A DNA stretch of 51,071 nucleotides from a virus (lineage: Duplodnaviria > Caudoviricetes), in IMG/VR virus record IMGVR_UViG_3300031260_000127, positions 1 to 51,071 of that record; one strand, written 5' to 3'. A model generated the notes under the pieces. It was not told the origin of the DNA. It saw nothing but the letters and a program-made list of their open reading frames with translations, and did no database searches. Below, piece by piece: positions 398 through 46,293 of the stretch; the stretch's first letter is position 1, and the number at the start of each line of letters is the position of its first letter. The position numbers and the translations under genes were made by a program.

Positions 398-670
398 TCA
401 CTCAAGTTGTTTAGGATATCTGGCTTTTATCTCAGAGACTTTATCTAACCATTCCTGACGTTTTTCAGATGACTGGTCAAATTGCCACTCCATGAAAATA
501 GGGTCTGACTCAAGGCGGTAAGCCTCTTTTCTCTTGACGAGGTTTTGAGCCTCTTCAAAGTCTTTTTGCTGCAGAACAGAGTCGACCTGCTCCTGAGTCA
601 TGCCAAGCGAATTCATATAGCTGCGGGTCGTGTCTGTGTGGGTTCGACCCTGAAAGATGTAACTAAACAT
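398..670 (-). CDS. Small protein downstream of the DGR RT; possible tail-fibre assembly chaperone (90 aa)
   Basis: ATG at 670 with SD AGGAGG, overlapping the RT 3' end. The C-terminus WLDKVSEIKARYP resembles small tail-fibre-associated proteins. Start revised from ORF-track 745. Confidence 0.6.
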   Translation of the reverse strand: MFSYIFQGRTHTDTTRSYMNSLGMTQEQVDSVLQQKDFEEAQNLVKRKEAYRLESDPIFMEWQFDQSSEKRQEWLDKVSEIKARYPKQLE

Positions 671-1940
671 CTGTTTTCCTCCTGAATGGCTCAGCAAAAA
701 GAGCCTTTTTAAGGTTGTAGGTGCTGGCGTGACCCGCATGGCCAAGCCAGGATTGAATGTTCTGGTTTATATTAGAGAGACTTATCTCGCCTTTAGCGAA
801 CTGGGACCGATACTTTTTAAGTTTTGTCTTGATTCGCTTGACGCTGCATTTTCTCAGTAACCTATGGCTCGAATAAATTCGATACCCGAGGAAGTCTAAG
901 CTCCTGCCGTTACTCGTTGAGATAGGGAAAACCTGCGTCTTGCTGTTCGTTTTTAATCTCAGGTAAAGGTGCAGGAACTCCTCTATATCCTTTCTCCACT
1001 GGTGCAGCACAGCCTTGTCGTGGTGAATGATGGCAAAATCGTCCATGTAGCGGATGTAGTGTTTTGCGCCAAGTGTGTGCTTTGCATATCTATCAAGCTC
1101 GTGCAGATACACGTTTGCAAAAATCTGACTGGTAAGGTTCCCCAGCGGAATGCCCACGCCCATTGATTCGCAAGGGCTGTTATCAATGATATAAAACAGC
1201 AGCTCAAGCGTTCTCTGGCATTGTATTTTTGCCGCAAGGATAGACTTCAATACTTGGTGGTCTATGCTCGAAAAGTACCGGCTAATATCCGCTTTTAACG
1301 CATACGCCTTGCCATGCTTTGACTCCACCTTCTTAATAAAATATTGAGCTCTGTCAGCGCCTTTGTGGGTGCCTTTCCCTCGTCTACATGCGTATGAGTC
1401 ATAGATGTAGGTTTTGTCAAACAGCGGTTCGATAACATTGTATATAGCCCGATGGACAACCCTGTCCTTAAAGTGCGGGGCTGATATCAGACGGCGCTTC
1501 GGCTCGAATACGTAAAAATGGTGATAGGGTGACATTTTATACATGCCCCACATCAGCTCGTTTTGTATTTCTATAATGTTCTCTTCCAGATTATTGAAGA
1601 AAACCAACGTTGCGTTCGCCTTTGTTTTTCCTTTTCGGCATGAGTATGCCGCCGATAAAAGATTCTCAAAATCAAATATCTTCTCGAATGAGCAGCCCAG
1701 TGACGCATCAATAGGCTTTATATCTGTTCCGGCTATGGCCGAGGAGGCGGCATCCTTTTCATGATTGCACTGACAGCATCCCTTGGGATGGTTGTTTCTG
1801 GCTACATCAAGAGCGGGGCGAAAACCGATGTTACTGTTCGAGTTCGACCGCGCATTGTTCAGATTGAGCGCGCCCAACCCGGCGTTCGAGCCATTGTTCC
1901 AGTTGCCCCCGCGAAGCGGGAATCGGTTCCGCGTATTCAT
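663..1940 (-). CDS. brt: DGR reverse transcriptase
   Basis: RT motifs KRRLISAPHFKDRVVH, YALKADISRYF, GIPLGNLTSQ (DGR-type SQ), YMDD and DFLGY. Adjacent to TR and avd. Confidence 0.96.
   Translation of the reverse strand: MNTRNRFPLRGGNWNNGSNAGLGALNLNNARSNSNSNIGFRPALDVARNNHPKGCCQCNHEKDAASSAIAGTDIKPIDASLGCSFEKIFDFENLLSAAYSCRKGKTKANATLVFFNNLEENIIEIQNELMWGMYKMSPYHHFYVFEPKRRLISAPHFKDRVVHRAIYNVIEPLFDKTYIYDSYACRRGKGTHKGADRAQYFIKKVESKHGKAYALKADISRYFSSIDHQVLKSILAAKIQCQRTLELLFYIIDNSPCESMGVGIPLGNLTSQIFANVYLHELDRYAKHTLGAKHYIRYMDDFAIIHHDKAVLHQWRKDIEEFLHLYLRLKTNSKTQVFPISTSNGRSLDFLGYRIYSSHRLLRKCSVKRIKTKLKKYRSQFAKGEISLSNINQNIQSWLGHAGHASTYNLKKALFAEPFRRKTDV
1812..1928 (-). repeat. DGR template repeat (TR), 117 bp, followed by IMH*
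   Basis: Aligns ungapped to 2366-2482. It has 25 adenines on the minus strand, 22 of them in 11 AAY codons. Confidence 0.96.
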
Positions 1941-2293
1941 AATGCCGTCCCCTGTTGCTTGGCATTAGCGGAGCGTATCCAGCCGCCTATCATTTTTCCA
2001 AGCTCAACCAGTTGGCCTACCCATATTTCATATCTCTTGATGTCGATATACCGTAAGTCCTTGGCGAGCCTGATTCGCCGTTTCAAGATGGCAAGCTCGA
2101 TATCTAAATCGGTCAGGGTCGTCTTCTTGTGGTATCGCTTAAATGCCGTGATGATCAATCTTTGAAGTTGCAGCATTGAAAGCCTGATTTCCGCACCTAA
2201 AACATGGCGCTCATGTTTTGGAAACTGCTTTATTGCTTGATAGCCGTACATCATCATTTCTCGGCATTTTTCTTCAATGATTAGCGTTGTCAA
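1937..2293 (-). CDS. avd: DGR accessory variability determinant (Avd, four-helix bundle)
   Basis: Motifs FPKHERHVLGAEIR and ELGKMIGGW, basic, about 118 aa, located between target and TR. Probable TTG start at 2293 after GGAGG (ORF track gives 2308). Confidence 0.92.
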   Translation of the reverse strand: MTTLIIEEKCREMMMYGYQAIKQFPKHERHVLGAEIRLSMLQLQRLIITAFKRYHKKTTLTDLDIELAILKRRIRLAKDLRYIDIKRYEIWVGQLVELGKMIGGWIRSANAKQQGTAL

Positions 2294-2314
2294 CTTGCCT
2301 CCGCACAACTAAAG

Positions 2315-2332
2315 GGCGCACTACCGTGCGCC
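2315..2332 (-). promoter_or_regulatory. DGR target-recognition hairpin/cruciform downstream of VR/IMH
   Basis: Minus strand GGCGCAC-GGTA-GTGCGCC: 7-bp GC-rich stem with a GRNA tetraloop, 21 nt past the target stop codon. Confidence 0.85.
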
Positions 2333-2353
2333 ATCCAAAGAATCAGTTAACAG

Positions 2354-3724
2354 TTACACAAAGAAAGCGGGGCGAAAACCGATGTTACCGCTCGAGTGCG
2401 ACCGCGCAACGCCCAGACCGAGCGCGCCCAACCCGGCGTACGAGCCATCGAACCAGGAGCCCCCGCGAAGCGGGAAACGGTCACCATAGTTTCTAGTGTA
2501 CAGCACCCCTCCAACAGTCTGGTCTGATGCAGTCTCTAGCAGCAGCTGTCTGAGCAGTTCAACTGGAGCATAACCGGAAGATTTTTGCAGAAGCTTGAAT
2601 CCGACAGAGTTACTATATCCAGAGTTTATGTCGTCACCGACATTACCCATGCGATTTGTCACTGTTGAATTGAGGATAGGTGAGCCGCCGGTAGTTGAAG
2701 TTGAATCGTAATACGCTGTGTGACGATTCCATCCAGCCTCTGTTAATGATGGGTTGTTATCAAGAGTTGTTATAATTTGACCGTCATCCAATTTCATCTG
2801 GTCAATCCATTCCCAGACGTTGCCGACCAGGTCACATACGCCGAACTCAGTATGATCGTGATTCCACGTTGCGGGGCCCTTGCCTGTGTCGGTTCGCCCA
2901 GTGCTACTGGTATCGCCAGGCAGTCCGTTGTCGGCACGTCGAGCGGTTTCCCACTTCGCTTCGTGGCTGCGACCATAGTTAGTATTACCACGAGGCACAG
3001 TACCATTGGCCAGAGACCAGAGTGCAATGGCGGCCCACTCGTGAATCGACATCATGTGCCAATTTGCGCCTTTGCGCGTGCACAGCTCTTTTGCTACATC
3101 GTAGTTAACGGATGTGAGCGGCTGAGAGCCGCCGATAACGGCAGAGCCGCCCGCCGCCGATGATGCCAGGTATTTGCCGACAAGGATTTCGCCACGAGGC
3201 GCTCCGTTTGTGATGAATGCAGGATGCGTTCCGGTGCCAAGATTTAATGCCGTCAGGCCGAGATCTTCAACGTTGAACCTTGGTATCACACACATGATGT
3301 TGGGATTTCCCTGTGCATCATATACGACAGTATTTCTACCCCCTGAATTTTGCTCGATCGACTTTCGATAGCCATCCGTTGCGATAATAGTTAAGTTGCT
3401 GACGTTCTGGTTATAGTCAGTCTCAAGTGTGTTAAGCGCGTCATCACAGTCATTTATCAGTTCGGATGCCTGGTCTGCCAATTTCTTGGTGTATCCCTGG
3501 ACAGGAATGATAGAGTACTCTTGGCCTGACTGAGAATTGCTTTTATAACTCGGATAAATTGATAGTGCCGAATCACTGGCAATATTCGTTATCTCATAGG
3601 TCAGCCTATCGGGGCCAACGAAGGCATCACCTACCCGGCTGTTTGCCACCCACGCAGTGCCGCTTCCGGTTACTGTGGTGGAACCATTGGTTACTGTTAC
3701 TGTACCTGTTCTGTACCATGCCAT
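2354..3724 (-). CDS. DGR target: tail fibre / receptor-binding protein with C-terminal C-type-lectin (FGE-sulfatase-like) fold
   Basis: N-terminus MAWYRTGTVTVTNGS is typical of tail-fibre anchors. CLec-type motifs DLVGNVWEW, RGGSW and IGFRPA. Carries the VR and follows J. Confidence 0.92.
   Translation of the reverse strand: MAWYRTGTVTVTNGSTTVTGSGTAWVANSRVGDAFVGPDRLTYEITNIASDSALSIYPSYKSNSQSGQEYSIIPVQGYTKKLADQASELINDCDDALNTLETDYNQNVSNLTIIATDGYRKSIEQNSGGRNTVVYDAQGNPNIMCVIPRFNVEDLGLTALNLGTGTHPAFITNGAPRGEILVGKYLASSAAGGSAVIGGSQPLTSVNYDVAKELCTRKGANWHMMSIHEWAAIALWSLANGTVPRGNTNYGRSHEAKWETARRADNGLPGDTSSTGRTDTGKGPATWNHDHTEFGVCDLVGNVWEWIDQMKLDDGQIITTLDNNPSLTEAGWNRHTAYYDSTSTTGGSPILNSTVTNRMGNVGDDINSGYSNSVGFKLLQKSSGYAPVELLRQLLLETASDQTVGGVLYTRNYGDRFPLRGGSWFDGSYAGLGALGLGVARSHSSGNIGFRPAFFV
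2366..2482 (-). repeat. DGR variable repeat (VR) at the 3' end of the tail-fibre gene, followed by IMH
   Basis: 17 mismatches to TR, all opposite TR adenines. Diverges from TR right after CGCCCCGCT (TTCTTTGTGTAA versus CTTGATGTAGCC). Confidence 0.96.
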
Positions 3725-3726
3725 TT

Positions 3727-6700
3727 TTATTGCTCCGATATTTGTATTGATGTGATGCCTGCATAATATGAGTCTGCATAGAAATCACCTGACGTAGATA
3801 TCAGCTTGACTTCATAGTTGACGGTACCAGTGCCTGTGAACGAATCAGAGTATGTTTGGGATGGGCTAAACTGGTGACGGATAGTGACTTCCCATCCATT
3901 TCCTTCATACGAAGGGGCGGTTGTAATCGCCGTTGCTGTCGTTGACCATTGCTGTATCAACACGCCATTTCTGTAGAGTCCCCATGTAAGTGTCCCAGTT
4001 TTCTCCGGTTTGAATGTGTTAAGAAACGCATTGGCTTCTGCCGAAGTTGAAAACACTTCTCGCACTGACATGATGCACGATGTGCTGATGACAATATTTT
4101 TCTGATGGCCGAGACTGTTATTGTGGTCAACTGATGCATAATTATTCGCGCCAACAGTGTGACCCCACGTATTAAATCTGACTGATGAATACAGCGTTCC
4201 AGCCGCGAGAGAACCACCGAAATAGGCGCTACCGTCTGTTTTTCTATATTCTGTCGCGTTCGCCTCAGTACAATTACTGATATCGCCAACATCTGGGCCA
4301 AACCATTGAATAAACTGGTTTGAGCTGCCAAAGCCGACTCCGAATACCTGCATTGAACCGCCATATCGCTGAATAAGAGTTTTATTTAGCAGGGTTCCTA
4401 TTAATGCAGCATTCATCATTGGCATGCCATTTTCGATGACTACAGCCGGTGTAATGCTGTTTTCATCAGTCCCATTAATGAAGCTGATATTGTCGGCTTT
4501 CAGTAATATCTCACTCGATTCTCCATTAGAACCAAGTGCTAAACCAGCCCAAACTTTTCTGCCACTAGTTGTTGTTTCCGCCTTTATTGTTACTAGTGCA
4601 TTTACGTTACCTTCTAGATCTGCCTGAGCCTGTGATACTTGTTGCACTGCTGCGGCATTTTCACCAACTGTGGTATGTACAGTATTTATCTGCTGTGCTA
4701 ACGCACTATCCGCATCAGCGCGGACGGTCTGTTCTTGCTGAATGGCCGCGGTGTTTTGTGCCACACCACTATTAGCCGTATCTGCGGCAGCTTGTGCCGC
4801 AGCAGCTGAAGCCTGAACAGTCGTTATGTTTTGAGCTAAAGCCTCATCAGCTGTAGTCCGAGCAATACTTTCCTGCTGAATCGCAGCTGAGTTGTTTTTT
4901 GACTCTGCTGATATTGTAGTAATTTGACGCGCAAGCGCCTCATCCTCTGTTGCCCTTGCTTCCTGCTCTACGCGGATCGCCGCTTTTGACTTCCAACCAG
5001 CAAGAACGTCTGCAAGGCGACCTTCGCCAGTGTCTTCCACCGTCGCCTGAACTGTATTTATTTTCCTGCCCAATACACTATCCGCATCAGCTCTGGCCGT
5101 AGCCTCGGATTGAATCGCGGCAGCGTTGTCTCCGACAGATGATTGCAATGTTGTTATGTCCTGAGCAAGAGCGCTATCCGCATCAGCTCTGGCCGTAGCC
5201 TCAGATTGAATCGCTGCAGCATTGTCTCCGACAGACGATTGCAGCGTCGTTATGTCTTGGGCTAGAGCTTCATCAGCTGTAGTACGAGCAATACTTTCCT
5301 GCTGAATAGCAGCTGAGTTGTTTTTTGACTCTGCTGATATTGTAGTAATTTGACGCGCAAGCGCTTCATCCTCTGTTGCCCTGGCCTCCTGCTCTACGCG
5401 GATCGCCGCTTTTGACTTCCAACCAGCAAGAACGTCTGCAAGGCGACCTTCGCCAGTGTCATCATCGCGATAGGCGGCGATCATGGTGTCAGTGCGTGAA
5501 GTGTTTGCTTCAAGCTTGCCGTCAATCAAATCAACAGAGTTCTGAACATCTGTCATTTTCGCCGTGAGTGCAGCTACCGCCTCACCAATGCTGGCGTAAT
5601 CTCCTACATACTCCCAATAGTTGGTATCTGTCGGCAGAGTTCCGGCAGGTATGTTGTCCTGCTTTGCCCGGTAAAGCGATACACCTGTTCCGTCGTCGTA
5701 GGTGACGAATTCTCCGCTGTTATATACCGTTGAAGCGCTCCACTCTCCTGCCCCAGTAATGTCATCCAGCTGCTGGTTTATGCTGTCAATGTTTGCCTGG
5801 ATCTGCGGTATTTTGTCTATTTCAATGTTTATGGAATCAAGGTTTGATTCGATTCCTGGTATTTTTTCAATGGGGTCAAGCAGGCTCTGGGACAGTTCAC
5901 TTTCAGATATCTGCCCAGTAAGATAGTCGAGTATGTTGCCTGCATCTGAAGACGATGAACCTTGGACATAATCAGTCCACGGACCGATATTTCCTGTTCT
6001 GTCTACAATGCGCGCCTTAAACCAAAAACTTACGCCGGCGGCCAGACCATTTAATGTATGGTTATCCAGTGGATAGGCATATTGCCCGAGCAGTGTTTCG
6101 TTAGCTCCGGTGCTGCTGGTTGCATAGTAAATTTCGGTGTAAAGCGTGTCCTCTGCTCCGGCAGGAAAGCTCCAGTTTAAATCGATGCCAAATACAATCG
6201 AGGAAGTGGTCAGGCTGGCGAGTGCCGGAGGGGATCCGGTTTTGCCGGTAACGGGTGTTAGCGCTGATTCACGATAAATAGAGGCCACATCAACAGAATT
6301 AATGGCACGTACTCTGGCGAGATAATCACCGGTATATACGCCACGTACTTCCGCGCTGGTGCTGCCAGTTCTGGGGAGTGTTACCCACTCACCTGAATCT
6401 TTACGCCATTCCACATCATACGATATCGCCCCGGTGGCGGCTGGCCAACTAATCAGCATGACAGTGATAGATTGCGTCTGTTCGATGTACGTGCGCTGGC
6501 TGATGGTGACGGATGCAGGTGGTTGCTGAACTTTCGATGGCAGGATTGAAATTGGCCTATCAATGAGTTTTGAACCATTGTCGATAGACGTGAATTTGTC
6601 AGGGTTATAGGCAATCCCGGCGATCTGATATTCAATATCGTCTGAATCTGCTTTTTTAACGGTCGTGACGCGGTAGAGCTGTGGCTCAAGGCTATCTGAC

Positions 6701-8382
6701 TCCAGCGCCCATTGTAATTGTGGTTCTGGTGTTTCACTAAATGCCGTGGATATGGTTACTACCCTGCCGTTGACACCAGTAATGGTTCTTCGCTCTGCTT
6801 TACCGGATGGCAGGTTAATACGTAATCTGTCATTAATGGCCGCCTCTGGATCGCTATCCAGCGTAATATTTAAGCCATCAATGGCAGAAATACGGCCACC
6901 AATGCGTTTACCGGCGATCAGGCTATCGGCTACGCCAATAATGTAACCAGGCAACGGGATTTGACCATCAAGCCCGACAGAAAACGATACGGTACGGTCA
7001 TTATTATTGGTGTAAATCGCCCATTTACCGCGGCGCTGTGCTTCTGACTCTCGCGTACAACCAATGGCAGATAATTCCACGGGATTATCGCCGTAACGGC
7101 GTTGCAGTTTTGCATCAGCAACAGATGTCACATCGCTGTTATATTCGTTGTAAGGGTTATCCCAACTGACTAATGCCCGGCTGAATTTGGAGCGAATGCT
7201 GGTACCACTGTAATTAAATTGCCCGCCTTTCACGTTGGCATTGGTATAGAGGAAGTCCATATCCCGTGGCAAGTCAGCAATAGTTACCATCTGCCCATTG
7301 GCCCAGTACGTCATCCCGCGATAAATTGCTGCTAAATCGCGTAGCACTTGCCATGCTTCTTTAGGCTGTTGAATGTAAACATCGCATAAAAAGCGCGGTT
7401 CCATACCGCCTTTGCCATCAGGTACCAGTTCATCACAGTATTGCGCTATCTGGTACAGGCCCCACTTATCAACCAAGTCAGCGGTAATGCGCTGGCCTAC
7501 ACTGAAACGGTCCTCAAGAATAATGTCGTAAGAAACCCAAGCAGGATTATTAGTCCAGGCAATTTTGAAACTGCCGTCCCAGGTGCCTGAATAGGTTCTT
7601 GTTTCAGGATCATAGTTGGTAGGAACGCGCACTTTGCGCAGCTTGGTTTCAACTGCAACGGTAGGAATATTGCTGAACTGGCTGGCATCAAACTCAATAA
7701 ACAGCAGCGCGGTATTAGGATAGGTAAACTTGGCATCCACGATTTCGGTAATCGCCGAAATAAACATGGTATCGCCAACGGTAGCTTTATTCTGGTTAGG
7801 TGTTATACGGCGCACCCGTACTTGCCAGCTACTGCCGGCAGGTAAATCAACGCGATGGCTGCGCTCATATTGCTGGTTGGTTTTTCCGCTTACTGACGTG
7901 CTCAATACCGTTTGGTAACTACCACCATCAGTGGCAACATCAATGGCATACGCAATGGTATAACCCACAATATCGCCATTATCTTTTTGCTGCTGGATAG
8001 TCGGCCAGCGCAAACGTAGACGCACAGCCGATAACATGCTGTTGGTTATTGACCGGATCCAATCATTATCGCTATTTAGCTCAGTGTTAACGGTAGTTTC
8101 ATTTTCAACCGAAGGAATGCCCTGAATATAGCTTTGCTGGACAGAACCTGGTCTGAATTCCCACTTAGTCCCAGGGAAATTCTCATTGCCCTGGCTGTCG
8201 ATGAGTGGCGTACCATCAAGGTAAATCATGGTGCCATCGATAGACCCTTCCCACTCACCTTCACCCAGTGCCAGCAGCATTTTGGCATAACTGGTTGATA
8301 GCAGATCATTCTTGGCTTCGGTTGGGGTACTCCCAGAGCCACCGCTCTTGCGGCCAGTAATTATCGGTACTGCTATAGTCAT
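3727..8382 (-). CDS. J: Tail tip / host specificity protein J (lambda gpJ-like)
   Basis: 1551 aa. Motifs WTNNPAW, EPRFLCDVY and GCTRESEAQRRGKW, FN3-like repeats and a coiled-coil region. Confidence 0.93.
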   Translation of the reverse strand: MTIAVPIITGRKSGGSGSTPTEAKNDLLSTSYAKMLLALGEGEWEGSIDGTMIYLDGTPLIDSQGNENFPGTKWEFRPGSVQQSYIQGIPSVENETTVNTELNSDNDWIRSITNSMLSAVRLRLRWPTIQQQKDNGDIVGYTIAYAIDVATDGGSYQTVLSTSVSGKTNQQYERSHRVDLPAGSSWQVRVRRITPNQNKATVGDTMFISAITEIVDAKFTYPNTALLFIEFDASQFSNIPTVAVETKLRKVRVPTNYDPETRTYSGTWDGSFKIAWTNNPAWVSYDIILEDRFSVGQRITADLVDKWGLYQIAQYCDELVPDGKGGMEPRFLCDVYIQQPKEAWQVLRDLAAIYRGMTYWANGQMVTIADLPRDMDFLYTNANVKGGQFNYSGTSIRSKFSRALVSWDNPYNEYNSDVTSVADAKLQRRYGDNPVELSAIGCTRESEAQRRGKWAIYTNNNDRTVSFSVGLDGQIPLPGYIIGVADSLIAGKRIGGRISAIDGLNITLDSDPEAAINDRLRINLPSGKAERRTITGVNGRVVTISTAFSETPEPQLQWALESDSLEPQLYRVTTVKKADSDDIEYQIAGIAYNPDKFTSIDNGSKLIDRPISILPSKVQQPPASVTISQRTYIEQTQSITVMLISWPAATGAISYDVEWRKDSGEWVTLPRTGSTSAEVRGVYTGDYLARVRAINSVDVASIYRESALTPVTGKTGSPPALASLTTSSIVFGIDLNWSFPAGAEDTLYTEIYYATSSTGANETLLGQYAYPLDNHTLNGLAAGVSFWFKARIVDRTGNIGPWTDYVQGSSSSDAGNILDYLTGQISESELSQSLLDPIEKIPGIESNLDSINIEIDKIPQIQANIDSINQQLDDITGAGEWSASTVYNSGEFVTYDDGTGVSLYRAKQDNIPAGTLPTDTNYWEYVGDYASIGEAVAALTAKMTDVQNSVDLIDGKLEANTSRTDTMIAAYRDDDTGEGRLADVLAGWKSKAAIRVEQEARATEDEALARQITTISAESKNNSAAIQQESIARTTADEALAQDITTLQSSVGDNAAAIQSEATARADADSALAQDITTLQSSVGDNAAAIQSEATARADADSVLGRKINTVQATVEDTGEGRLADVLAGWKSKAAIRVEQEARATEDEALARQITTISAESKNNSAAIQQESIARTTADEALAQNITTVQASAAAAQAAADTANSGVAQNTAAIQQEQTVRADADSALAQQINTVHTTVGENAAAVQQVSQAQADLEGNVNALVTIKAETTTSGRKVWAGLALGSNGESSEILLKADNISFINGTDENSITPAVVIENGMPMMNAALIGTLLNKTLIQRYGGSMQVFGVGFGSSNQFIQWFGPDVGDISNCTEANATEYRKTDGSAYFGGSLAAGTLYSSVRFNTWGHTVGANNYASVDHNNSLGHQKNIVISTSCIMSVREVFSTSAEANAFLNTFKPEKTGTLTWGLYRNGVLIQQWSTTATAITTAPSYEGNGWEVTIRHQFSPSQTYSDSFTGTGTVNYEVKLISTSGDFYADSYYAGITSIQISEQ
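4820..5460. repeat. Internal direct repeats in the J coiled coil: 215-bp copies (4820-5034, 5246-5460) around 96-bp tandem units
   Basis: Offset 426 bp with about 9 mismatches. The protein repeat DTGEGRLADVLAGWKSKAAIRVEQ... occurs twice, and a 32-aa unit ITTLQSSVGDNAAAIQSEATARADADS occurs twice. Confidence 0.9.
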
Positions 8383-9101: not shown

Positions 9102-9590
9102 TCACACTTCTTTAGGCACAACATCACTACCACAGTGTTTACACTTTTTCGCCTTAGCCAAGATTTCTTCGGCGCAGAACGGGCACTCAACAGTCTGTTT
9201 CGCGCTCGAGCTAATCGATGGCTGCTGAGATGGTTGTGGTGTAGGATGCGTATCAGGTATAGTTTTCACAACTTCTGGCTGGTAATCCACTGAGCCAGGG
9301 TGAACCTTCAACGCCCAAACTAATGCCACAACCCAACCAACAAGCGTCCATCCTAATAAAAGGTTTAACGCAAAAATGCTGTAAAAGTTTGGTTGTTTAT
9401 GAATATAAGCTTCATACATTGGGTAAAAGTACAGCACGGGACCAGTAAGCAAAAATGAACCAGCCATGAATTGTCCAAAACCATTTAACTCATGTGCCGG
9501 GATTGTCCCAAATCCCCAACCAAGTGCTACCAACAACCCAAGCACAACTAACCTTACAATAAACATAAAAATTCCATTTTTAAAAATCAT
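9102..9590 (-). CDS. Superinfection immunity (T4 Imm-like) membrane protein with C-terminal zinc ribbon
   Basis: IFALNLLLGWTLVGWVVALVWAL motif; CPFC...CKHC. Confidence 0.8.
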   Translation of the reverse strand: MIFKNGIFMFIVRLVVLGLLVALGWGFGTIPAHELNGFGQFMAGSFLLTGPVLYFYPMYEAYIHKQPNFYSIFALNLLLGWTLVGWVVALVWALKVHPGSVDYQPEVVKTIPDTHPTPQPSQQPSISSSAKQTVECPFCAEEILAKAKKCKHCGSDVVPKEV

Positions 9591-9726
9591 GTTGTCTTTA
9601 TGTTAATTACATTTCAGCGGAATTGACAACCAGTTAATGGCGAAGTTGTGCTAACAGCGACATTATTCAGTTACCATTTTTAATGAATAGCCGCACAGCG
9701 GTTTCACCTATCATATCCCTCTTCCG

Positions 9727-9755
9727 TTGACAGCTTAGACGCATCTGACTATAGT
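9727..9755 (+). promoter_or_regulatory. Sigma70 promoter of the C4/antirepressor unit
   Basis: TTGACA-17 bp-TATAGT. Confidence 0.8.
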
Positions 9756-9764
9756 CCGCATTGA

Positions 9765-9823
9765 GGCGTCGAAACCTCATATACAGAGCGGCAATCCGCA
9801 CCCGATAGTTATGCGGATTTTTT
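9765..9823 (+). promoter_or_regulatory. c4-a1b1-like leader: upstream C4 target sites plus intrinsic terminator
   Basis: GTCGAAAC (9768-75), ATACAGAGCG (9781-90), stem AATCCGCA/TGCGGATT followed by a T run. Confidence 0.7.
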
Positions 9824-9850
9824 ATGCCATAACACTTGGCTCCCAGTTCT

Positions 9851-9932
9851 ATGCCGGGAGGCGTTAGCTATACAACACCCATAAGGGAAAGGCTAACGGC
9901 AGCGCTCTGTAGCTGTTTCGAACCTCCCGGAA
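9851..9932 (+). ncRNA. C4-like antisense RNA (P1/P7 immI type)
   Basis: Closing stem CCGGGAGG/CCTCCCGG and inner stem CGTTAGC/GCTAACG. Segments CGCTCTGTA and GTTTCGA are complementary to sites upstream (9768-90) and downstream (9955-70, at the antirepressor RBS). Confidence 0.75.
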
Positions 9933-9979
9933 CCCCATTATCGAAAGTGGGAATATTCGAAAATACAGAGGAAGCGAAA

Positions 9980-10816
9980 ATGTCACAGTCACTCATTCCA
10001 GCAGAAGCTGTTATCCGCAGCGATGGCATACTCAAAACTACTTCATTAAAAGTCGCTGAAGCATTTAATAAGCGCCATTCTCATGTGCTTCGTTCTATTG
10101 AAAATCTTGATTGCTCAGCAGAATTTACATCAGCCCACTTTTGGGTTCATGTTCAAAAAATCAGCATTGGCAATGGCGCCAGCCGTGAATCTAAGGTTTA
10201 CGAAATGACCAAAGACGGTTTTATGTTCTTGGTCATGGGGTTTACCGGTGCCAAAGCTGCCGCGATCAAAGAGGCTTATATTAATGCCTTTAACCAGATG
10301 GCGGAGACACTGAAAAACACAACAAAAACCAACAGCTATGATCGCACCTGCTTGCGCGATGCCATTAACATGTTGGTTGCCAAAAAGTCGTTGCTGTATT
10401 CAGATGCCTACAGCCTTATCCATCAGCGTTTTTCCGTAAGTCATATTGATCAACTTACCCAAGCGCAACTGCCGCAGGCAGTCGAATATGTTCACCGTAT
10501 GGCACTTGAAGGTGATTGGCTGGCACCCGCTGCATTACCGGAACCCAACTTTACCCAACAGTTTAGCTTTGATGAACTGTACCAGCTTGCCATGTTATGG
10601 CACCGCGCTGAGGTAATGCGACAATCCATTGAGCAGGTTTACCCGCTGCTGCGTGTTGCAGAACATCGCCTGGCTGGAAAATACTATGAAATGTATCGTC
10701 TGTTCAAGCTGGATATTGATAGTTCGCAGCGCTTGCTTGCCAGAGAAGTTGCTCAGGTGCAGTTACCCCATGACTATGAGTTTATGAGTAGTTTATTTGG
10801 CCTATTGCAAAGCTGA
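9980..10816 (+). CDS. Rha-family regulator / antirepressor (Rha N-domain plus P22 Ant C-terminal-like region)
   Basis: TTSLKVAEAFNKRHSHVLRSIE, YEMTKDGFMFLVMGFTGAKAAAIKEAYINAFNQM. ATG at 9980 after GAGG (ORF-track start 9836 runs through the C4 RNA). Confidence 0.88.
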   Translation: MSQSLIPAEAVIRSDGILKTTSLKVAEAFNKRHSHVLRSIENLDCSAEFTSAHFWVHVQKISIGNGASRESKVYEMTKDGFMFLVMGFTGAKAAAIKEAYINAFNQMAETLKNTTKTNSYDRTCLRDAINMLVAKKSLLYSDAYSLIHQRFSVSHIDQLTQAQLPQAVEYVHRMALEGDWLAPAALPEPNFTQQFSFDELYQLAMLWHRAEVMRQSIEQVYPLLRVAEHRLAGKYYEMYRLFKLDIDSSQRLLAREVAQVQLPHDYEFMSSLFGLLQS

Positions 10817-10828
10817 TTAATGGGTACT

Positions 10829-10852
10829 AAAAAGGCCACCGATGGTGGCCTT
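10829..10852. terminator. Terminator hairpin between convergent rha and hicA-like genes
   Basis: AAAAAGGCCACC-GAT-GGTGGCCTT. Confidence 0.7.
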
Positions 10853-11147
10853 ATTCTTCAACAGATAGCTTAACTTCATGAGGATCATCTTTAAGCTTTT
10901 TGTCGTTACAGTATTCGAGAAAAACTCGTTTACTTACTCCAGCTTGATTTGCCATAGATTTTACTAAGTCATTAGAAAATGGCGCTTTAGGGCAATCAAC
11001 CGTTACCTTAAGCATTTTACCACTTACCACTTTTTTCCAATGCACATGTGATGTGCCATCCTGTGGAAACTCTTCAAACCCCATATTCCTTAGGGCTCTT
11101 TTAACCTGCTCACAGGTAGGTGGTGCAAATTTTCTAAATAGTCCCAC
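10851..11147 (-). CDS. hicA: HicA-like toxin (dsRBD-fold mRNA interferase)
   Basis: VKRALRNMGF...GTSHVHW...VTVD...LVKSMANQAG pattern, basic, 98 aa. Confidence 0.75.
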   Translation of the reverse strand: MGLFRKFAPPTCEQVKRALRNMGFEEFPQDGTSHVHWKKVVSGKMLKVTVDCPKAPFSNDLVKSMANQAGVSKRVFLEYCNDKKLKDDPHEVKLSVEE

Positions 11148-11149
11148 TT

Positions 11150-11473
11150 TTATCTATGGACCAGTTCCATTGGTAGTACGTTGTTAAATATTCTGCAACT
11201 TTTTTTAAATTTAAGCAATTTTCCTAACATACTAACTGCTGCATATTCCATTCGCTGTGAAAGTGGCGCTTTACGATTGAGTAACTGTTCAGCGTATTCA
11301 CGATCAACAGTAAAAGCATCATGAATATAGGAATGAATCATAGATTCAAGCTTTTCCTTAGCTTCTTCCAGAGTTTCGGCTTGGGCAGCCAACGACAAAT
11401 CAACAGCAATTGCTACCCATGAATCGCCATCCTTTTTGGCGTAACACCGAATAACAAGTTGGTTTGTTCGCAT
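11150..11473 (-). CDS. hicB: HicB-like antitoxin
   Basis: WVAIAVDLSLAAQAETLEEAKEKL motif. ATG at 11473 after GGAG, directly upstream of the hicA-like gene. Confidence 0.7.
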   Translation of the reverse strand: MRTNQLVIRCYAKKDGDSWVAIAVDLSLAAQAETLEEAKEKLESMIHSYIHDAFTVDREYAEQLLNRKAPLSQRMEYAAVSMLGKLLKFKKSCRIFNNVLPMELVHR

Positions 11474-11501
11474 ACTATCTCCTAAGTGATTTAGCCCGCG
11501 C

Positions 11502-11529
11502 ATTATACGGATTTAATCTGCAAAGACAA
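11502..11529 (-). promoter_or_regulatory. Sigma70 promoter of the hicBA-like moron
   Basis: TTGTCT-16 bp-TATAAT on the minus strand. Confidence 0.65.
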
Positions 11530-28269: not shown

Positions 28270-29502
28270 TTATGCGGCTTTCACGGCATCACCTTTAAAA
28301 GTGCATCTTGGGATTATCTTGGTCTTGAATGGGTTGTTTATGCCAATAAGATGCTGGTGCCATAACTCAATTGCGGCCCGTTTCTGGGTTTCCATGTAGG
28401 TGTGGATGTAGGCCTTATCAAGCTTTGTCATACTGTGGTTTAGCAGTTGCTCTGCTACCATATAATCCACCCCAAGATCTGCCCAACAAGTACGGGCAAG
28501 CTTACGCAGGTCGTGGGCCGTCCAATCACCTTTACTAACACTCTTTACAGAGGCAGATGCAATACGGCTGCCCATCGCCGCTTTGATGTTCACAGATGGG
28601 AATAACCAGTTACCCGCTACTTCTTCCCGGTACCAGCGCAGCACCGCAATCATCCAGTCAGATAATGGCAACACATGCTCAACCCGCGTCTTAGTGATAT
28701 CAGCAGGAATGATTAAGCGCTTTCCGGCGATATCGAAGTATTGCCATTGCAGGTGGCGGGTTTCCCCAATGCGGGTACCCAATGCCAACATGATGAACAA
28801 CAGCATTGCCTCTTTTGGTTCTGCGGCGGCGATGGCATCCAATACCATAGGCAGATCCTTCGGCTGCAAGCTTGAACCCTTTGGCTTAATAGTGGCATCA
28901 GTAAAATCGCTGAACCTAATACCTGCTAATGGGTCATCTGCAATACAGCGCAATACTGACGCCTGTTTAAAGGCTTTTTTCAATACAGCAAAGTGCTGCC
29001 GTACCGTGCCCAAGGTATAGTTACGCTGTAGTGGCCACAGCAAGAATTCATCAAGCTCTTTGCGGCCGATACCGTCCAACGCAATATTGCCAAGCAATGG
29101 CAGTAGGTGCTTATCGATGCTGCACTTGATGTTTTCCTTGCGCTTATCAGAGAGACTTCTGTCCGCCAGCGCACGATCACGGTACCAGCGCAGCACACCA
29201 CCGCAGTTTGACCAGGTGCCAATGGCAGTGGCTTCACCGTTTCGGCTTTCCATCGTCAGTCTTGGCAGTTCATCAATCATCGCTTTGGCGCTATTGGCTG
29301 GCCACTCGCCCACCTTCCGCCATTTAGCCGTGCCGTTCTGGTAGGTAACCAGATGCCAACTGCCACCGTTGCGACGAGTATTAAACCGCAATTTCAACGG
29401 ATAGCGGGCGTCCCTAACTTCATCCACATGGCTAGCCATTGCAGATCGTATCGCCGCATCAGAAAGGCGGATTTCAGCAGATACCCTGCGCCCATCATTC
29501 AT
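28270..29502 (-). CDS. Second tyrosine recombinase with N-terminal arm-binding-like domain
   Basis: Catalytic set GTRIGE (R), ITKT (K), HDLRK (H,R), LLNH (H), KAYIH (Y). Confidence 0.9.
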   Translation of the reverse strand: MNDGRRVSAEIRLSDAAIRSAMASHVDEVRDARYPLKLRFNTRRNGGSWHLVTYQNGTAKWRKVGEWPANSAKAMIDELPRLTMESRNGEATAIGTWSNCGGVLRWYRDRALADRSLSDKRKENIKCSIDKHLLPLLGNIALDGIGRKELDEFLLWPLQRNYTLGTVRQHFAVLKKAFKQASVLRCIADDPLAGIRFSDFTDATIKPKGSSLQPKDLPMVLDAIAAAEPKEAMLLFIMLALGTRIGETRHLQWQYFDIAGKRLIIPADITKTRVEHVLPLSDWMIAVLRWYREEVAGNWLFPSVNIKAAMGSRIASASVKSVSKGDWTAHDLRKLARTCWADLGVDYMVAEQLLNHSMTKLDKAYIHTYMETQKRAAIELWHQHLIGINNPFKTKIIPRCTFKGDAVKAA

Positions 29503-35401: not shown

Positions 35402-36127
35402 ATGCTAAATGTGGTTGAAATAAAGGAAATTATAAGACCTCTTGCTCAAGGATTCACACAACCATATCTGTGTCGAGGTGCCGATGGAATCCAGTATGTT
35501 GTCAAGGGAAATGATGCCACAAGGGAAGGACTGATAAACGAGTGGGTATGCGCCAACATTGGTATTAAATTCGGCTTACCCATCCCCGCGCCGGTGATTG
35601 CTTCAGTGCCAACCATGTTCACTGAATATAGTGAATACCCTAACCTCTCTATTGGTGAGTGTTTTGGCTCCACCTACATCAACGGGCTATCAGAAGTTAT
35701 CTATAGCCAACTAGATCAGTTAGACAGAGAAACATTGCTAGATCTATATGTCTTTGATTATTGGATTAAGAATGGAGATAGAAGCCTAACCGAATTAGGT
35801 GGTAACCCAAATTTCTTTGTCGATGTGAAACAACAATCAGCCGTGGTTATTGACCATAACCTAGCATTCGACAACCAGTTTTCAATCAACACGCACAAGC
35901 AAAGCCATGTATCGAGTAAGTTTTGGAATGGCGATCAAACAAGAATGTTCGACTTTCCAGTCTATGAGAACAAGTTCAAACATGCCTTGAGCTGCTTTGA
36001 CCAATGTATAGAGCAAATTCCAGATATTTGGTTTCACGATTTAAACCATAAAGCTGGTGTAGTTAACCGACTCAAGCTAACATTATCCGCATATGAACAG
36101 GCTGACTTTTGGGAGGGATTAAAGTGA
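35402..36127 (+). CDS. HipA-like (HipA_2-type) kinase
   Basis: QGFTQPYLC, YVVKG, NEWVC, FDYWIKNGDR, NPN, VIDHNLAF. Confidence 0.85.
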   Translation: MLNVVEIKEIIRPLAQGFTQPYLCRGADGIQYVVKGNDATREGLINEWVCANIGIKFGLPIPAPVIASVPTMFTEYSEYPNLSIGECFGSTYINGLSEVIYSQLDQLDRETLLDLYVFDYWIKNGDRSLTELGGNPNFFVDVKQQSAVVIDHNLAFDNQFSINTHKQSHVSSKFWNGDQTRMFDFPVYENKFKHALSCFDQCIEQIPDIWFHDLNHKAGVVNRLKLTLSAYEQADFWEGLK

Positions 36128-36969
36128 ATATCTTATGTCATTATGCCATCGTTCGCTTTATGCCGTTCCTCGAAACGGAAGAGTTTGCCAACGTAGGTAT
36201 TATCCTGTTTTCTCCACATACTGGCTATGCAGACTACAAACTCGCGCCTAAGCGATTTGGTCGAGTTAGCCAATTTTTTGATGACTTAGATGGCAAACTG
36301 TACAACAACGCAATAGATACTTTCTGTCAAGAAATGCAGCGTGTAACTGAGCTAGGCCAAACACTATATGGCAAAGAACAACTTAGTTACTTCAAAGAAG
36401 TCACCCGCCTGCGCGAGAGTCTATTACGTTTTGGCGAGCTAAGAACCATTGCCGTAGATAACCCAGACCAAGCACTGGATAAACTTTACGAGCATTACGT
36501 TGGTCGAGCATTTGTCACTAAAGAATACCGCGAAGAGTTAATGGTAAAAGCATTAAAGAGAGATCTTCGCAAGCATGTGAACGGCGTAGCGTTTAAACAA
36601 CAGATGCTAGTTGGTGAGTTTGATACAGAGGTGACACTGCCGCTTGTAGCAACGTTTAACGATAGCTACAAGGCAATTAAGCCTATGGCGTTCAACCAGC
36701 CAAAGCCGATGAACTTGCTAGAACATGGTGAAAAATGGATACGCCGTATTAAACGCCTGATCAATGCTGACACGGTAAGCCCAGAGCAGTTTCTATTTGC
36801 GGTAGAAGGACCTAATTCAAAGGATCGCGCACTTAATTCTGCCTATGGTGATATTAAAGACCAGTTAGCGCGGCTAAATGTAAATGTTTTACCGTTTGCA
36901 GATAAGCAAGAGATCTTTAGATTTGCAAGAACTGAAATCAAAGAGCCGATATTCACCTTGAGATCTTAA
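36124..36969 (+). CDS. DUF3037-domain protein
   Basis: YAIVRFMPFLETEEFANVGIIL N-terminal motif; GTGA overlap with the kinase stop. Confidence 0.8.
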   Translation: MNILCHYAIVRFMPFLETEEFANVGIILFSPHTGYADYKLAPKRFGRVSQFFDDLDGKLYNNAIDTFCQEMQRVTELGQTLYGKEQLSYFKEVTRLRESLLRFGELRTIAVDNPDQALDKLYEHYVGRAFVTKEYREELMVKALKRDLRKHVNGVAFKQQMLVGEFDTEVTLPLVATFNDSYKAIKPMAFNQPKPMNLLEHGEKWIRRIKRLINADTVSPEQFLFAVEGPNSKDRALNSAYGDIKDQLARLNVNVLPFADKQEIFRFARTEIKEPIFTLRS

Positions 36970-43876: not shown

Positions 43877-44500
43877 ATGAACAACTACGCCGCACAACTC
43901 GCTGCGCTTAAGGCACAGCCTTGCCACAAACTCAGTGAGGTAGGCGACCAATGGCGCACTCCTGACTGGCTTTACTGGGGAATCTTCGCCGCATTTGGCC
44001 CCTTTATTCTTGACCTGTTCAGCGATGGCACAAACAGTAAGTGCCAGAAGTTCTTCACCGTGGAAGATAACGCACTGGCGCAAGACTGGGCGGCAGCACT
44101 TAAAGGGGGAAAAGCCTTCTTCAACCCTCCCTATTCCCGCAGCAGCTATGACGATGACGGCACGGCCATTACTGGCATGCGCAACATCATTGCTAAAACG
44201 ATGGCAGAACGCGAAAAAGGCGCTCGCATGGTCTGCTTAATCAAAGCGGCCACTTCTGAAGTTTGGTGGCCTGAAGAAGCTGACCACATAGCGTTCATTC
44301 GAGGACGTATCAGTTTTGATTTACCCGAATGGTACGTGCCAGCCGACAAGAAGCAGGTGGCAGCAAGCGCCGGGTTCGCCTGTGCAATAGCCGTGTTTGA
44401 TAAGTCATGGCAAGGCAAGCCAATGAGCTATATCAGCCGCGAACAGTTGAAAACGGATGGTGAAACGATGATGCGGTTAATGAATAAGGAAGCGGCCTGA
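43877..44500 (+). CDS. Phage N6-adenine DNA methyltransferase (Dam-like)
   Basis: DQWRTP, LDLF, FNPPYS, IRGRISF. Confidence 0.9.
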   Translation: MNNYAAQLAALKAQPCHKLSEVGDQWRTPDWLYWGIFAAFGPFILDLFSDGTNSKCQKFFTVEDNALAQDWAAALKGGKAFFNPPYSRSSYDDDGTAITGMRNIIAKTMAEREKGARMVCLIKAATSEVWWPEEADHIAFIRGRISFDLPEWYVPADKKQVAASAGFACAIAVFDKSWQGKPMSYISREQLKTDGETMMRLMNKEAA

Positions 44501-46293
44501 TGGGAATCTATCGCGGAAAAACGCAGTTTGAGCTGGGAATAGACCAGCGAGAGTTAATCGTGGACAACTTTGCCGGGGGCGGAGGTGCTAGTTCTGGTAT
44601 TGAGGATGCGGTAAATCATCCGGTCGATATCGCCATCAATCACGATCCTGATGCCATTGCGATGCACAAGACTAACCATCCACTGACAAAGCACTACTGC
44701 GAAAGCGTGTGGGATGTGGATCCGGTTGAAGTATGCGATGGTCGTCCGGTTGGGCTGGCGTGGTTTAGCCCGGACTGCAAACACTTTTCAAAAGCCAAAG
44801 GCGGTAAGCCTGTCGAAAAATCCATCCGGGGACTGGCGTGGATCGCCGTTCGCTGGGGTTCCTTGGTAAAGCCAAGGATCATAATGTTGGAGAACGTTGA
44901 AGAGTTCACCACCTGGGGCCCAATAGACGAACAATGTCAGCCGATCAAAGCACGCGCAGGTGAAACATTTGCAGCATTTAAGCTGGCACTATCGACTGGA
45001 TTACCAATTTGTCACGCTGGTTGGTCTGATGTTTATCACTCGATGATGCGCTGCAACTATGACTTACACAAAAAGCTCAGATTGTTCAAAGCGATTAAAC
45101 ATGGATTGGGGTATAGCATTGATCACCGTGAGTTGAGAGCTTGTGACTATGGCGCCCCAACCATCCGCAAGCGTTTTTTCTTGATCGCCAGATGCGATGG
45201 TCAGCCAATCGTGTGGCCTGAGCCAACCCACGGTGATCCCAAGAAGCCAGAAACAAAAGTGAAAAAATTAAAGCCTTGGCGCACAGCTGCTGAGTGCATT
45301 GACTGGTCAATCCCCTGCCCATCGATATTCGAGCGGTCGCGGCCACTGGCTGAAAACACACTGCGGCGCATCGCTAAAGGCATCCAGAAGTTTGTGATTG
45401 AGTCCAACGAGCCATTTATTGTGAAGTGCAATCACACGTCAACAAAAACGCGCTATGAGGCATTCAGGGGGCAGACAGTAAACGAGCCACTGCAAACAGT
45501 AACTCAGTCACCTGGTTTTGCGATTGTTGAGCCGACATTAGCACCATTCATCACCGAACATGCAAACGCTAGCAGCCAGAGAAACATGCCGGCAGACGAA
45601 CCACTGAGAACAATTTGCGCTCAGGTTAAAGGCGGACATTTTGCAATAGTCGCACTCGTCATCGCTCGCCAATTTGGCAACAGCACGGCTAACGACATAA
45701 CCGATCCACTCGGAACCGTCACCGCTGGCGGAGGAGGTAAGTCACAACTGGTGGCTGCATTCCTAGCCAAGCATTACGGCGGCAACTATACCGGTGCTGG
45801 TTCAGCAATTAATGATCCGCTGCATACGGTGACCACAACGGATCACAATGCGCTAGTAACAAGCCACATGATCAAGCTACGCGGTACCAACATCGGATCA
45901 CCCATTACCGAGCCAGTACATACGGTTACTGCCGGCGGGTTGCATCTAGGAGAAGTCCGGGCATTCCTGATCAAATACTACGGGACCAACATCGGGCATT
46001 CGCTCAATGAGCCACTTCAGACGATAACCGCCAAACATCGCTTTGGCCTGGTCATGATCCACGGTGAGCCATACCAGATAGTTGATATTTGCATGCGAAT
46101 GCTTGAGCCACATGAACTGTTCGCTGCTCAAGGATTTGCTAGCAACTACATCATCGATGTTGACAGCACTGGAAAGCGGTATCCAAAGGCAAAACAGGTA
46201 GCACGTTGCGGAAACTCAGTACCGCCACCGCTGGCCACTGCATTAGTGCGAGCAAACTATACTGAGAAAAACAGCATATCTATTGCCGCCTAG
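44500..46293 (+). CDS. C5-cytosine DNA methyltransferase
   Basis: DNFAGGGG, FSPDCKHFS, LENVEEF, RKRFF, CGNSV; repeated (D/E)PLxTVT units. Confidence 0.92.
   Translation: MGIYRGKTQFELGIDQRELIVDNFAGGGGASSGIEDAVNHPVDIAINHDPDAIAMHKTNHPLTKHYCESVWDVDPVEVCDGRPVGLAWFSPDCKHFSKAKGGKPVEKSIRGLAWIAVRWGSLVKPRIIMLENVEEFTTWGPIDEQCQPIKARAGETFAAFKLALSTGLPICHAGWSDVYHSMMRCNYDLHKKLRLFKAIKHGLGYSIDHRELRACDYGAPTIRKRFFLIARCDGQPIVWPEPTHGDPKKPETKVKKLKPWRTAAECIDWSIPCPSIFERSRPLAENTLRRIAKGIQKFVIESNEPFIVKCNHTSTKTRYEAFRGQTVNEPLQTVTQSPGFAIVEPTLAPFITEHANASSQRNMPADEPLRTICAQVKGGHFAIVALVIARQFGNSTANDITDPLGTVTAGGGGKSQLVAAFLAKHYGGNYTGAGSAINDPLHTVTTTDHNALVTSHMIKLRGTNIGSPITEPVHTVTAGGLHLGEVRAFLIKYYGTNIGHSLNEPLQTITAKHRFGLVMIHGEPYQIVDICMRMLEPHELFAAQGFASNYIIDVDSTGKRYPKAKQVARCGNSVPPPLATALVRANYTEKNSISIAA

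Follow-up and report, generated by a model that had tools for sequence, protein, structure and literature searches.

Does the minus-strand gene cluster near one end of a 51-kb provirus make up a functional retroelement, and, if it does, what does it diversify, where did it come from and to what part of the virion does its product attach? The provirus is IMG/VR record IMGVR_UViG_3300031260_000127 (Duplodnaviria; Caudoviricetes), whose positions 1 to 51,071 are the whole stretch analysed here and are called the window below. An initial annotation, made from the sequence letters and a list of open reading frames (ORFs), had placed at 663–3724 a complete diversity-generating retroelement (DGR) that diversifies a side tail fibre of a lambda/HK97-type siphovirus. 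Along the minus strand the cassette has the order gpJ, target, hairpin, avd, template repeat (TR), spacer, reverse transcriptase (RT) ORF and a 90-amino-acid ORF. The explanation that we prefer, and to which we give a probability of about 80%, is that this is an intact DGR of the lineage found in the Vibrio phages VHML and VP58.5, whose module has recombined into a prophage with an HK97-type head and a lambda-type tail, where its variable domain is carried on an anchor of the F2-pyocin type.

The TR (1812–1928) and the variable repeat (VR; 2366–2482), both on the minus strand, were delimited by ungapped self-alignment and repeat search. They align without gaps over 117 nt with 17 mismatches, and all 17 of these lie at TR adenines (of which there are 25), exactly as the initial annotation had it; an independent repeat search recovers the same pair (family D3, 86%), and these are the sole two copies in the whole record, that is, one TR and one VR. 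The chance that 17 of 17 differences would fall on 25 of 117 sites is 9.0e-15. The VR encodes the final 39 variable-region residues of the target protein ahead of an FFV-stop terminus, and its end lies 9 nt ahead of the target stop codon (2354–2356). Read in frame from the sequence, the TR contains 11 AAY codons and one each of CGA, AGT and ATC; the peptide readings first given for the two repeats were exact on re-checking, and the figure of 15^11 variants attributed to the AAY codons is correct arithmetic (about 8.6e12). Position 0 of the TR is an adenine, yet it is G in 10 of 11 related VRs; this position may lie outside the mutagenised tract or may be held by selection. With it omitted, the above chance becomes 4.2e-14, and a table in PMC5758913 counts 24 adenines for the sister elements of the VHML/VP58.5 lineage. 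The last TR adenine is at index 99, and the two repeats share a 17-nt A-free end beyond which their flanks are unrelated. This GC-rich 3′ end of the VR (2366–2382, minus strand, the same as TR 1812–1828) is our candidate for the core of the site at which mutagenic homing is initiated (IMH); the IMH/IMH* divergence proposed in the initial annotation refers to no more than this identical end and the unrelated flanks.

Are the differences in related elements restricted in the same way? Over nine related TR/VR pairs, 119 of 126 mismatches are at TR adenines. In an alignment of 11 related VRs, 24 of the 25 TR-adenine sites vary, as against 7 of the 92 other sites, and none of the 11 contains a stop codon; three of the seven variable non-adenine sites (indices 47, 51 and 56) carry changes that are mirrored in the same element's TR. 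The TRs themselves are well conserved, with 1–4 differences per 117 positions between that of the window and those of the eight relatives compared. Among the four target genes of the siphovirus type, the VR is different in each; divergence is 52–72% at TR-adenine sites, 0–2.2% at the other VR sites and 6.1–8.9% in the rest of the gene. Such low non-adenine divergence together with high adenine-site divergence is as expected if a conserved TR repeatedly overwrites each VR.

Population data were taken from the assembled Logan contigs of public runs X1–X4. Run X1 is identical to the window and may be its source, and it was left out of the count; the other three come from two studies and carry relatives (35 differences over 522–2382) and not the exact phage of the window. 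Contig depths, which are given per contig, were not used for ranking. In each of X2, X3 and X4 a single contig covers RT, TR and avd and stops at 2382, the last A-free VR base. X2 and X4 each have two alternative contigs across 2353–2491, and X3 has several at VR sites, four of them at position 2389. In all three runs the window's T at index 51 is replaced by C in both the TR (1877) and the VR (2431). The split VR contigs support variability of the VR and are not proof of activity in place. Taken with the mirrored changes, they suggest that the DGR works, or worked very recently, and we infer that it does so by retrohoming. The initial annotation had held that the element has acted on this VR, a claim that the adenine-site variation of the relatives and the split VR contigs back.

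Just past the VR, 33 nt from its end, lies a candidate target-site hairpin (2315–2332, minus strand) whose 7-bp GC-rich stem is closed by a GGTA loop; the GRNA-loop hairpin noted at the outset is this one, and GGTA fits GRNA. In stem, loop and distance it agrees with the published rule for DGR target sites, a GC-rich stem of 7–10 bp with a GRNA loop 4–34 bp from the VR, for which PMC3240598 lists VHML as one example. A hairpin is found at the same place in all 10 DGR-bearing relatives (7 distinct sequences), always with a GGTA or GATA loop, and 8 DGR-less relatives have none. Compensatory changes are seen in four of its seven pairs (slid controls gave 0–1 pairs), and 100% of cells in the alignment can pair, versus 84.2% in shuffles (0 of 500 shuffles reached the observed value). 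In three of the related loci, which are numbered here with an L (L020, L021 and L065), the fibre stop codon is followed by two hairpin-arm-like sequences split by other DNA; it looks as if a DGR had been lost or gained at the hairpin there.

The region past the TR also appears to be structured as RNA. The putative Sp-like spacer RNA (1694–1814, minus strand) has hairpins at 1768–1800, 1729–1742 and 1694–1717, and RNAalifold predicts 31 pairs in it from 9 sequences. Pairing is possible in 96.1% of cells versus 86.8% in shuffles (0/500), and the number of compensatory pairs is 12 where 5.9 are expected (0/500), with 0–3 in slid controls. One predicted helix, between the TR 3′ end (1809–1814) and 1750–1756, never varies on both sides and has no compensatory change. 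Three covarying hairpins within 120 nt past the TR are what is looked for as the structured RNA of a DGR, and by analogy they would correspond to those of BPP-1 elements: a preprint (10.1101/2023.10.23.563531) describes how in BPP-1 a structured RNA that lies downstream of the TR wraps around RT-Avd and serves to prime cDNA synthesis, and reports putative Avd-binding stem-loops just past the TR in 207 of 278 DGRs. At gathering thresholds, Rfam gave no family in the DGR region.

The protein genes of the cassette are intact. The avd gene (1937–2308, minus strand) matches Pfam bAvd at 6.8e-31 over profile positions 1–106 of 107, and phrog_3206, "Avd protein of DGR", at 3.2e-47; its likely start, read from the sequence, is a TTG at 2293 with GGAGG ahead of it. 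One promoter candidate (TTGACA-16-AAAAAT, 2293–2266) was dropped, as it coincides with this likely start and the total count of such sites is at the chance level. The RT ORF (663–1940, minus strand, 425 amino acids; RVT_1 1.3e-19) begins at an ATG that overlaps the avd stop codon, and its translation contains both the LGNLTSQ and the YMDD motifs that had been reported for it. The RT domain proper, residues 86–410 (711–1685, minus strand), aligns unbroken with residues 10–315 of the 328-residue chain of the solved BPP-1 bRT (8ub7; E 4.5e-59). The TR and the spacer are in frame within the 5′ part of the same ORF (1685–1940), and this frame runs uninterrupted from an ATG ahead of the TR in all but one of 14 elements (13 of 14), the exception being the VHML record. 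Is the spacer conserved as protein or as RNA? Changes at its first, second and third codon positions number 6, 5 and 16, versus 65, 35 and 179 in the RT body, a mild third-position enrichment that is weakly coding-like, and RNA structure explains the conservation of the spacer better than translation does. Together with the target gene these parts form a complete target-avd-TR-RT unit, and the BPP-1-type architecture proposed in the initial annotation stands, as does the presence in it of Avd and of an RT.

What does this DGR diversify? The target gene (2354–3724, minus strand, 456 amino acids) starts with an ATG 2 nt past the gpJ stop codon and encodes a chimeric side tail fibre whose two halves have separate sets of relatives: PHROG tail-fibre families match residues 1–112, and phrog_2889 matches residues 77–455. 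Residues 1–92 (3449–3724, minus strand) form an N-terminal anchor that aligns with residues 1–92 of the F2-pyocin side fibre PyoF13 (PDB 25ve_A; E 5.2e-22), covering its OB domain, to which it is about 50% identical, and the start of its stem. Its MAWYRTGT start is conserved across 27 aligned fibres, the A being present in at least 90% and the other seven residues in all. The anchor occurs in 47 phage records, 46 of them of Pseudomonas phages, and with unrelated C-termini in 37 loci; a gpJ match stands upstream in 16 of the 37, and matches to RT and Avd are absent from every one of them; in the window this is the single gene that carries it. The junction of the fibre lies in the helical stem near residue 103. 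Beyond it, residues 115–455 (2360–3382, minus strand) form a variable domain with a C-type lectin (CLec) fold, formylglycine-generating enzyme (FGE) subtype, that matches the Thermus aquaticus protein TaqVP (PDB 5VF4) at E 2.4e-58. According to a preprint (10.1101/432187), TaqVP is a CLec-fold DGR variable protein of this subtype with its VR at the C-terminus, and its crystal structure has nine solvent-exposed variable residues; in our alignment, read against the published residue list, eight of the nine fall on variable codons of the window, and the conserved tryptophan of TaqVP aligns with W424 of the target. TaqVP is by this match a close relative of phage tail-fibre tips (E 2.4e-58), and its own genomic context may be a prophage remnant. 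Kinship of the target to lambda Stf was looked for by sequence search only, in which none of the 6 PDB matches (E up to 1) was named a lambda side fibre.

The protein on which this fibre would be mounted is encoded directly upstream. The gpJ-like central tail fibre (3727–8382, minus strand, 1551 amino acids; Pfam FNIII-A_GpJ 4.5e-46, Phage_Tail_Tip 5.9e-16) consists of a hub, fibronectin type III domains, a long coiled-coil shaft and a Phage_Tail_Tip domain, and among solved structures it is closest to the F2-pyocin central fibre (25vf; E 0, residues 8–1092 to 5–1070), ahead of lambda J (8iyk) at 8.3e-112. PMC13455828 reports that three side-fibre trimers of the F2 pyocin dock by their OB domains and stem helices on a kink of this shaft (residues 953–956, G955), and that the docking site is not the distal tail protein. 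In the alignment, pyocin residues D953-D954-G955-N956-G957 stand opposite a DTGEG motif at gpJ residues 975–979 (5446–5460, minus strand), and R43, D45, G48, G50, D54, G58 and W59 of the gpJ segment are invariant in 10 of 10 aligned segments from loci with anchor-type fibres. A second DTGEG copy at residues 1117–1121 (5020–5034, minus strand) lies within a recent internal duplication of the shaft, a direct repeat (4820–5037 and 5246–5463) that is 95% identical, and the residues after both copies are the same. Relatives have two copies (L007 and L028) or one (L006 and L068); L005, whose contig is cut, displays one copy and the neighbouring repeats. By analogy with the pyocin, then, the target fibre is probably mounted as trimers on the gpJ shaft kink. 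That the fibre is separate from the gpJ tip had been asserted from the start, and the homology of its residues 1–92 to the F2-pyocin side-fibre anchor (E 5e-22) agrees with it.

Where did the diversifying module come from? By blastn the window shares the block 465–3415 with VHML and VP58.5: 483–3415 is 90.0% identical to VP58.5 over 2959 nt, and 465–3416 is 87.6% identical to VHML. When 600–3800 was searched against 50,697 phage records, VP58.5 matched at 93.8% over 79% of the query and VHML at 91.4% over 80% (two records each); the same query had no match in E. coli genomes. The avd-TR-RT part is closest, with 97–100% DNA identity to VP58.5 per 100-nt window, an RT protein that is 99% identical and a TR with a single difference in 117 nt. 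Immediately ahead of the VR, the segment 2500–2780 is only 47–63% identical to VHML/VP58.5 and resembles the version in L013, L017 and L062. Outside the cassette the comparison with these two phages covered the structural region 3800–28000, for which megablast found no match to either and a sole match of 700 bp in a Pantoea phage. GC content is continuous across the cassette, with no break. The cassette is, on this sequence evidence, a member of the already catalogued VHML/VP58.5 DGR lineage and not a new element: Supplementary Table S1 of PMC5758913 has both phages in its curated DGR set as TG-AVD-TR-RT, with a CLec1, FGE-sulfatase target.

The direction of movement can be judged from two kinds of data. 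In a maximum-likelihood tree of avd-RT (16 rows), three siphovirus-borne copies fall within a 100/100 clade beside five myovirus-borne copies, the siphovirus rows not being resolved as a single clade; when the tree is rooted on its most distant pair, the deeper branches are all of myovirus context but one (L026, whose context is not assigned). The CLec module is carried by 31 loci; myovirus markers accompany it in 26 of them, gpJ and the siphovirus anchor in 3, and 2 are unassigned. Because of this tree and the preponderance of myovirus contexts, the simplest reading is that the module was transferred from myovirus to siphovirus. PMC5758913 describes horizontal transfer of DGRs as abundant.

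The cassette ends with a small ORF of 90 amino acids (398–670, minus strand; phrog_5714 8.4e-32) whose ATG at 670 stands behind AGGAGG. Its product is 87% identical to VHML ORF38 and VP58.5 gp21 and 56% identical to the protein of ACA1/ACA2, and it is present in 61 phage records. It moves with the C-terminal module of the fibre, and in DGR-less relatives it follows the fibre gene directly: it stands after the fibre in 8 of 10 such loci (L010, L015, L020, L021, L025, L063, L065 and L066), in five of these eight only 13–30 nt past the fibre stop codon. It has no Pfam family, its best PDB E-value is 0.49 and its Atlas clusters are all unnamed, the only lead from the Atlas being XkdW on 32% of one cluster (score 0.90). 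Its role may lie in assembling the fibre or in some accessory function. In MT838106 (L082) an unrelated anchor-type fibre is likewise followed by a homologue of the C-terminal half of this small protein.

If the element works as BPP-1 does, an RNA with the avd 3′ end, the TR and the structured spacer would bind RT and Avd, and the RT would copy the TR into cDNA, misincorporating opposite adenines. This cDNA would then replace the VR, guided by its A-free GC-rich end and by the GRNA hairpin 33 nt downstream, and up to 13 residues (those of the 11 AAY codons and of AGT and ATC) could be recoded on the ligand-binding face of the CLec domain. As to its history, a 2.95-kb module from P2-like Vibrio or marine myoviruses, composed of fibre stem, CLec domain, hairpin, avd, TR, spacer, RT and the 90-amino-acid ORF, would have recombined into an unrelated prophage with an HK97-type head and a lambda-type tail. 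There the anchor, judged by homology, would dock as trimers on the kink of the gpJ coiled-coil shaft, whose motif is duplicated here, and a switch of tropism through this fibre, as the initial annotation had proposed, may follow.

Several observations weigh against this explanation. The alternative VR contigs could stem from co-occurring strains instead of diversification in place, and runs X2–X4 hold relatives rather than the phage of the window. Promoter-like sites in the scan of the cassette are at the chance level (7 found, 7.2 expected), and no canonical start codon was found between the spacer and the RT domain. Taken singly, the hairpin has an unremarkable folding energy (z −1.86; 13 of 200 shuffles fold as well), and it was also scored as terminator-like; we accept it because it is conserved with compensatory changes across relatives, and not by its energy. 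Homology is the whole ground for placing the fibre on gpJ. Finally, the lineage is prone to decay: Supplementary Table S1 of PMC5758913 records two stop codons in the avd of VHML, the RT frame of the VHML record is broken, L008 and L024 keep RT remnants only (in L008, avd residues 1–63 adjoin RT residues 386–425), and in 10 informative loci the fibre is present while avd and RT are missing.

Such frequent decay is what recommends the idea that the element in the window is a recently inactivated relic, in which the VR differences predate or just follow the transfer to the siphovirus and homing has since ended. All of its ORFs and cis elements are intact, however, the VRs of the four siphovirus-type genes all differ from one another while their non-adenine sites have diverged by only 0–2.2% (6–9% in the rest of the gene), and alternative VR contigs occur within single runs, so that we consider a relic improbable. 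We would give somewhat more credence, although it too seems unlikely to us, to an active DGR whose target sits elsewhere on the tail tip or is a distal receptor-binding piece of the central fibre, and not a side fibre of the shaft. The F2-pyocin paper suggests that separate gene products supply the receptor-binding part of the central fibre (PMC13455828), and the stem and C-terminal domains of the target differ from PyoF13, the match being confined to residues 1–92; against these stand the roughly 50% identity of the anchor to the PyoF13 OB domain, the kinship of gpJ to the pyocin central fibre as its nearest solved structure, the pyocin kink motif kept in gpJ, and the fact that in 16 of 37 anchor-only loci the anchor-type fibre lies downstream of a gpJ match.

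The remaining two alternatives fare much worse. Ordinary recombination or gene conversion among fibre alleles, with no reverse transcription, could be argued from the mosaic body of the fibre, in which 2500–2780 has 47–63% identity to VHML/VP58.5 and is like that of L013, L017 and L062; it would not restrict changes to TR adenines as is seen here (119 of 126 mismatches over 9 pairs; 24 of 25 adenine sites as against 7 of 92), and is very improbable as the source of the VR differences. A reading of the target as a SUMF1/EgtB/PvdO (FGE) family enzyme, which the RefSeq product names of the VHML and VP58.5 proteins and its own Pfam FGE-sulfatase match (E 1.9e-07) would favour, is scarcely credible: this match covers only profile positions 89–191 of 255, the whole domain matches the non-enzymatic TaqVP (E 2.4e-58), and the gene is in the tail-fibre position in both types of phage. 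An intact, recombined DGR of the VHML/VP58.5 lineage with a probably shaft-borne target is the explanation that we retain.

The carrier is, as first described, a lambda/HK97-type siphovirus. It encodes an HNH endonuclease, terminase, portal, protease and HK97-type capsid, its tail genes are lambda-type (major tail protein, chaperone, tape measure, M, L, K, I and J), and a scan of 56 ORFs turned up neither sheath nor baseplate genes. Its capsid protein shares 68–69% identity with the capsid proteins of Yersinia phage PY54, Klebsiella phage phiKO2 and Marinobacter phage AS1. Vibrio, Shewanella, Aliidiomarina, Paraglaciecola and Pseudomonas are among the sources of relatives of the two fibre halves.

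Elsewhere in the provirus a moron cluster (9102–11503) lies between tail genes K and I and is made up of a superinfection-immunity protein gene (9102–9590), a Rha/P22-antirepressor-like gene (9836–10816) whose 5′ end matches the Rfam family sRNA-Xcc1 (9853–9939, 60.3 bits), a gene for a HicA-family toxin (10851–11147) and an ORF with no assigned family (11150–11503). There are two tyrosine integrase genes, one in mid-prophage between the lysis genes and a Q-like antiterminator gene (28270–29502), with no convincing repeats flanking it, and the other cut by the right end of the record (50058–51071). Directly after the CI-like repressor gene, 35402–36969 encodes a HipA_2-like kinase (E 9e-71) and a DUF3037 protein, which may be a prophage-borne defence or toxin pair. 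Three consecutive ORFs at 43877–47847 match DNA methyltransferase PHROG families, the best match of the first being a PAPS-reductase-like family. Beside the DGR end of the provirus, the minus strand at about 100–170 and at 300–350 looks by eye like the 3′ halves of tRNA genes; these stretches resemble the attachment-site remnants that would be expected, and ARAGORN found no complete tRNA in the window.

What would such an arrangement mean? One further suggestion, which we put forward tentatively and would not call likely, is that the DGR, the CLec domain and the 90-amino-acid ORF constitute a self-contained plug-in that passed from contractile-tailed to non-contractile-tailed phages by a single crossover in the helical stem of the fibre, that it is displayed in the new carrier on an F-pyocin-type anchor around the shaft of the central fibre, and that the virion may have two tiers of hypervariable side fibres, the latter because the docking motif is duplicated (gpJ residues 975 and 1117). 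Were this so, the phage would have a gpJ tip that stays constant and, beside it, numerous copies of a receptor binder that rewrites itself. Apart from that suggestion, the case shows that an entire DGR, variable domain and cis elements included, can pass between phages of different tail types when no more than an adaptor of about 100 residues is swapped; nature thus offers a model for building self-diversifying receptor binders into other phage or tailocin scaffolds. The locus also connects the recently solved mode of F-pyocin side-fibre attachment with actual prophages and with a fibre that is hypervariable, and the family to which it belongs, small and well sampled, includes intact, decayed and DGR-less members, so that the gain and loss of DGRs can be studied in it. 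Knowledge of how DGRs work is left unchanged.

How, then, does the element compare with known systems? Like the DGR of Bordetella phage BPP-1 (mtd-avd-TR-brt), it has this gene order, adenine-specific differences, a GC-rich VR end, a GRNA hairpin and a structured RNA after the TR; unlike BPP-1, its target is TaqVP-like rather than Mtd and its TR and spacer lie inside the RT frame, and its hairpin, at 33 nt from the VR, is at the far end of the 4–34 bp range given in PMC3240598. TaqVP itself differs from the target in being a monomeric single domain with no fibre anchor, and its authors describe it as possibly intracellular (preprint 10.1101/432187). PyoF13 shares with the window the N-terminal anchor, the central fibre and the docking kink motif, but its receptor-binding end is R-pyocin-like and not diversified, and the motif is duplicated in the window shaft; distally, the 25ve match of the target ends at residue 92, and a TaqVP-like domain takes the place of the R-pyocin-like receptor-binding domain. 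Bacteroides Hankyphage is, as described in PMC6199706, also temperate and DGR-bearing with a flexible siphovirus-type tail, and its lineage is unrelated.

The closest systems are those of the P2-like myoviruses. VP58.5 and VHML (genus Vhmlvirus) have the same C-terminal target module, hairpin, avd, TR, RT and small ORF as the window, but in those phages the tail fibre is split, and the target, its distal half, sits between the gpI and short fibre-N genes and the sheath gene, whereas that of the window follows gpJ and has its first ~103 residues swapped for a siphovirus side-fibre anchor; of the features of the Vhmlvirus-type module, the near-identical avd-TR-RT and the small ORF are found in the window and the P2-like contractile placement is not. 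The Pseudoalteromonas phages ACA1 and ACA2 are reported in PMC10612066 to have the same module, with an antireceptor, avd, an RT ORF whose beginning holds the TR in frame, and a small third protein; that paper takes the TR-encoded peptide to be an RT extension and describes the module as related to that of Vhmlvirus and as moving apart from the tail genes. These phages differ from the window in being P2-like myoviruses in which, by the same account, the N-terminal part of the fibre is a separate polypeptide. A full-text literature search for "diversity-generating retroelement" together with "side tail fiber" returned no paper, siphovirus DGRs not having all been searched. Set beside these systems, what is new here is the siphovirus carrier and the chimeric target, in which an F2-pyocin-type anchor is joined to a TaqVP-type tip.

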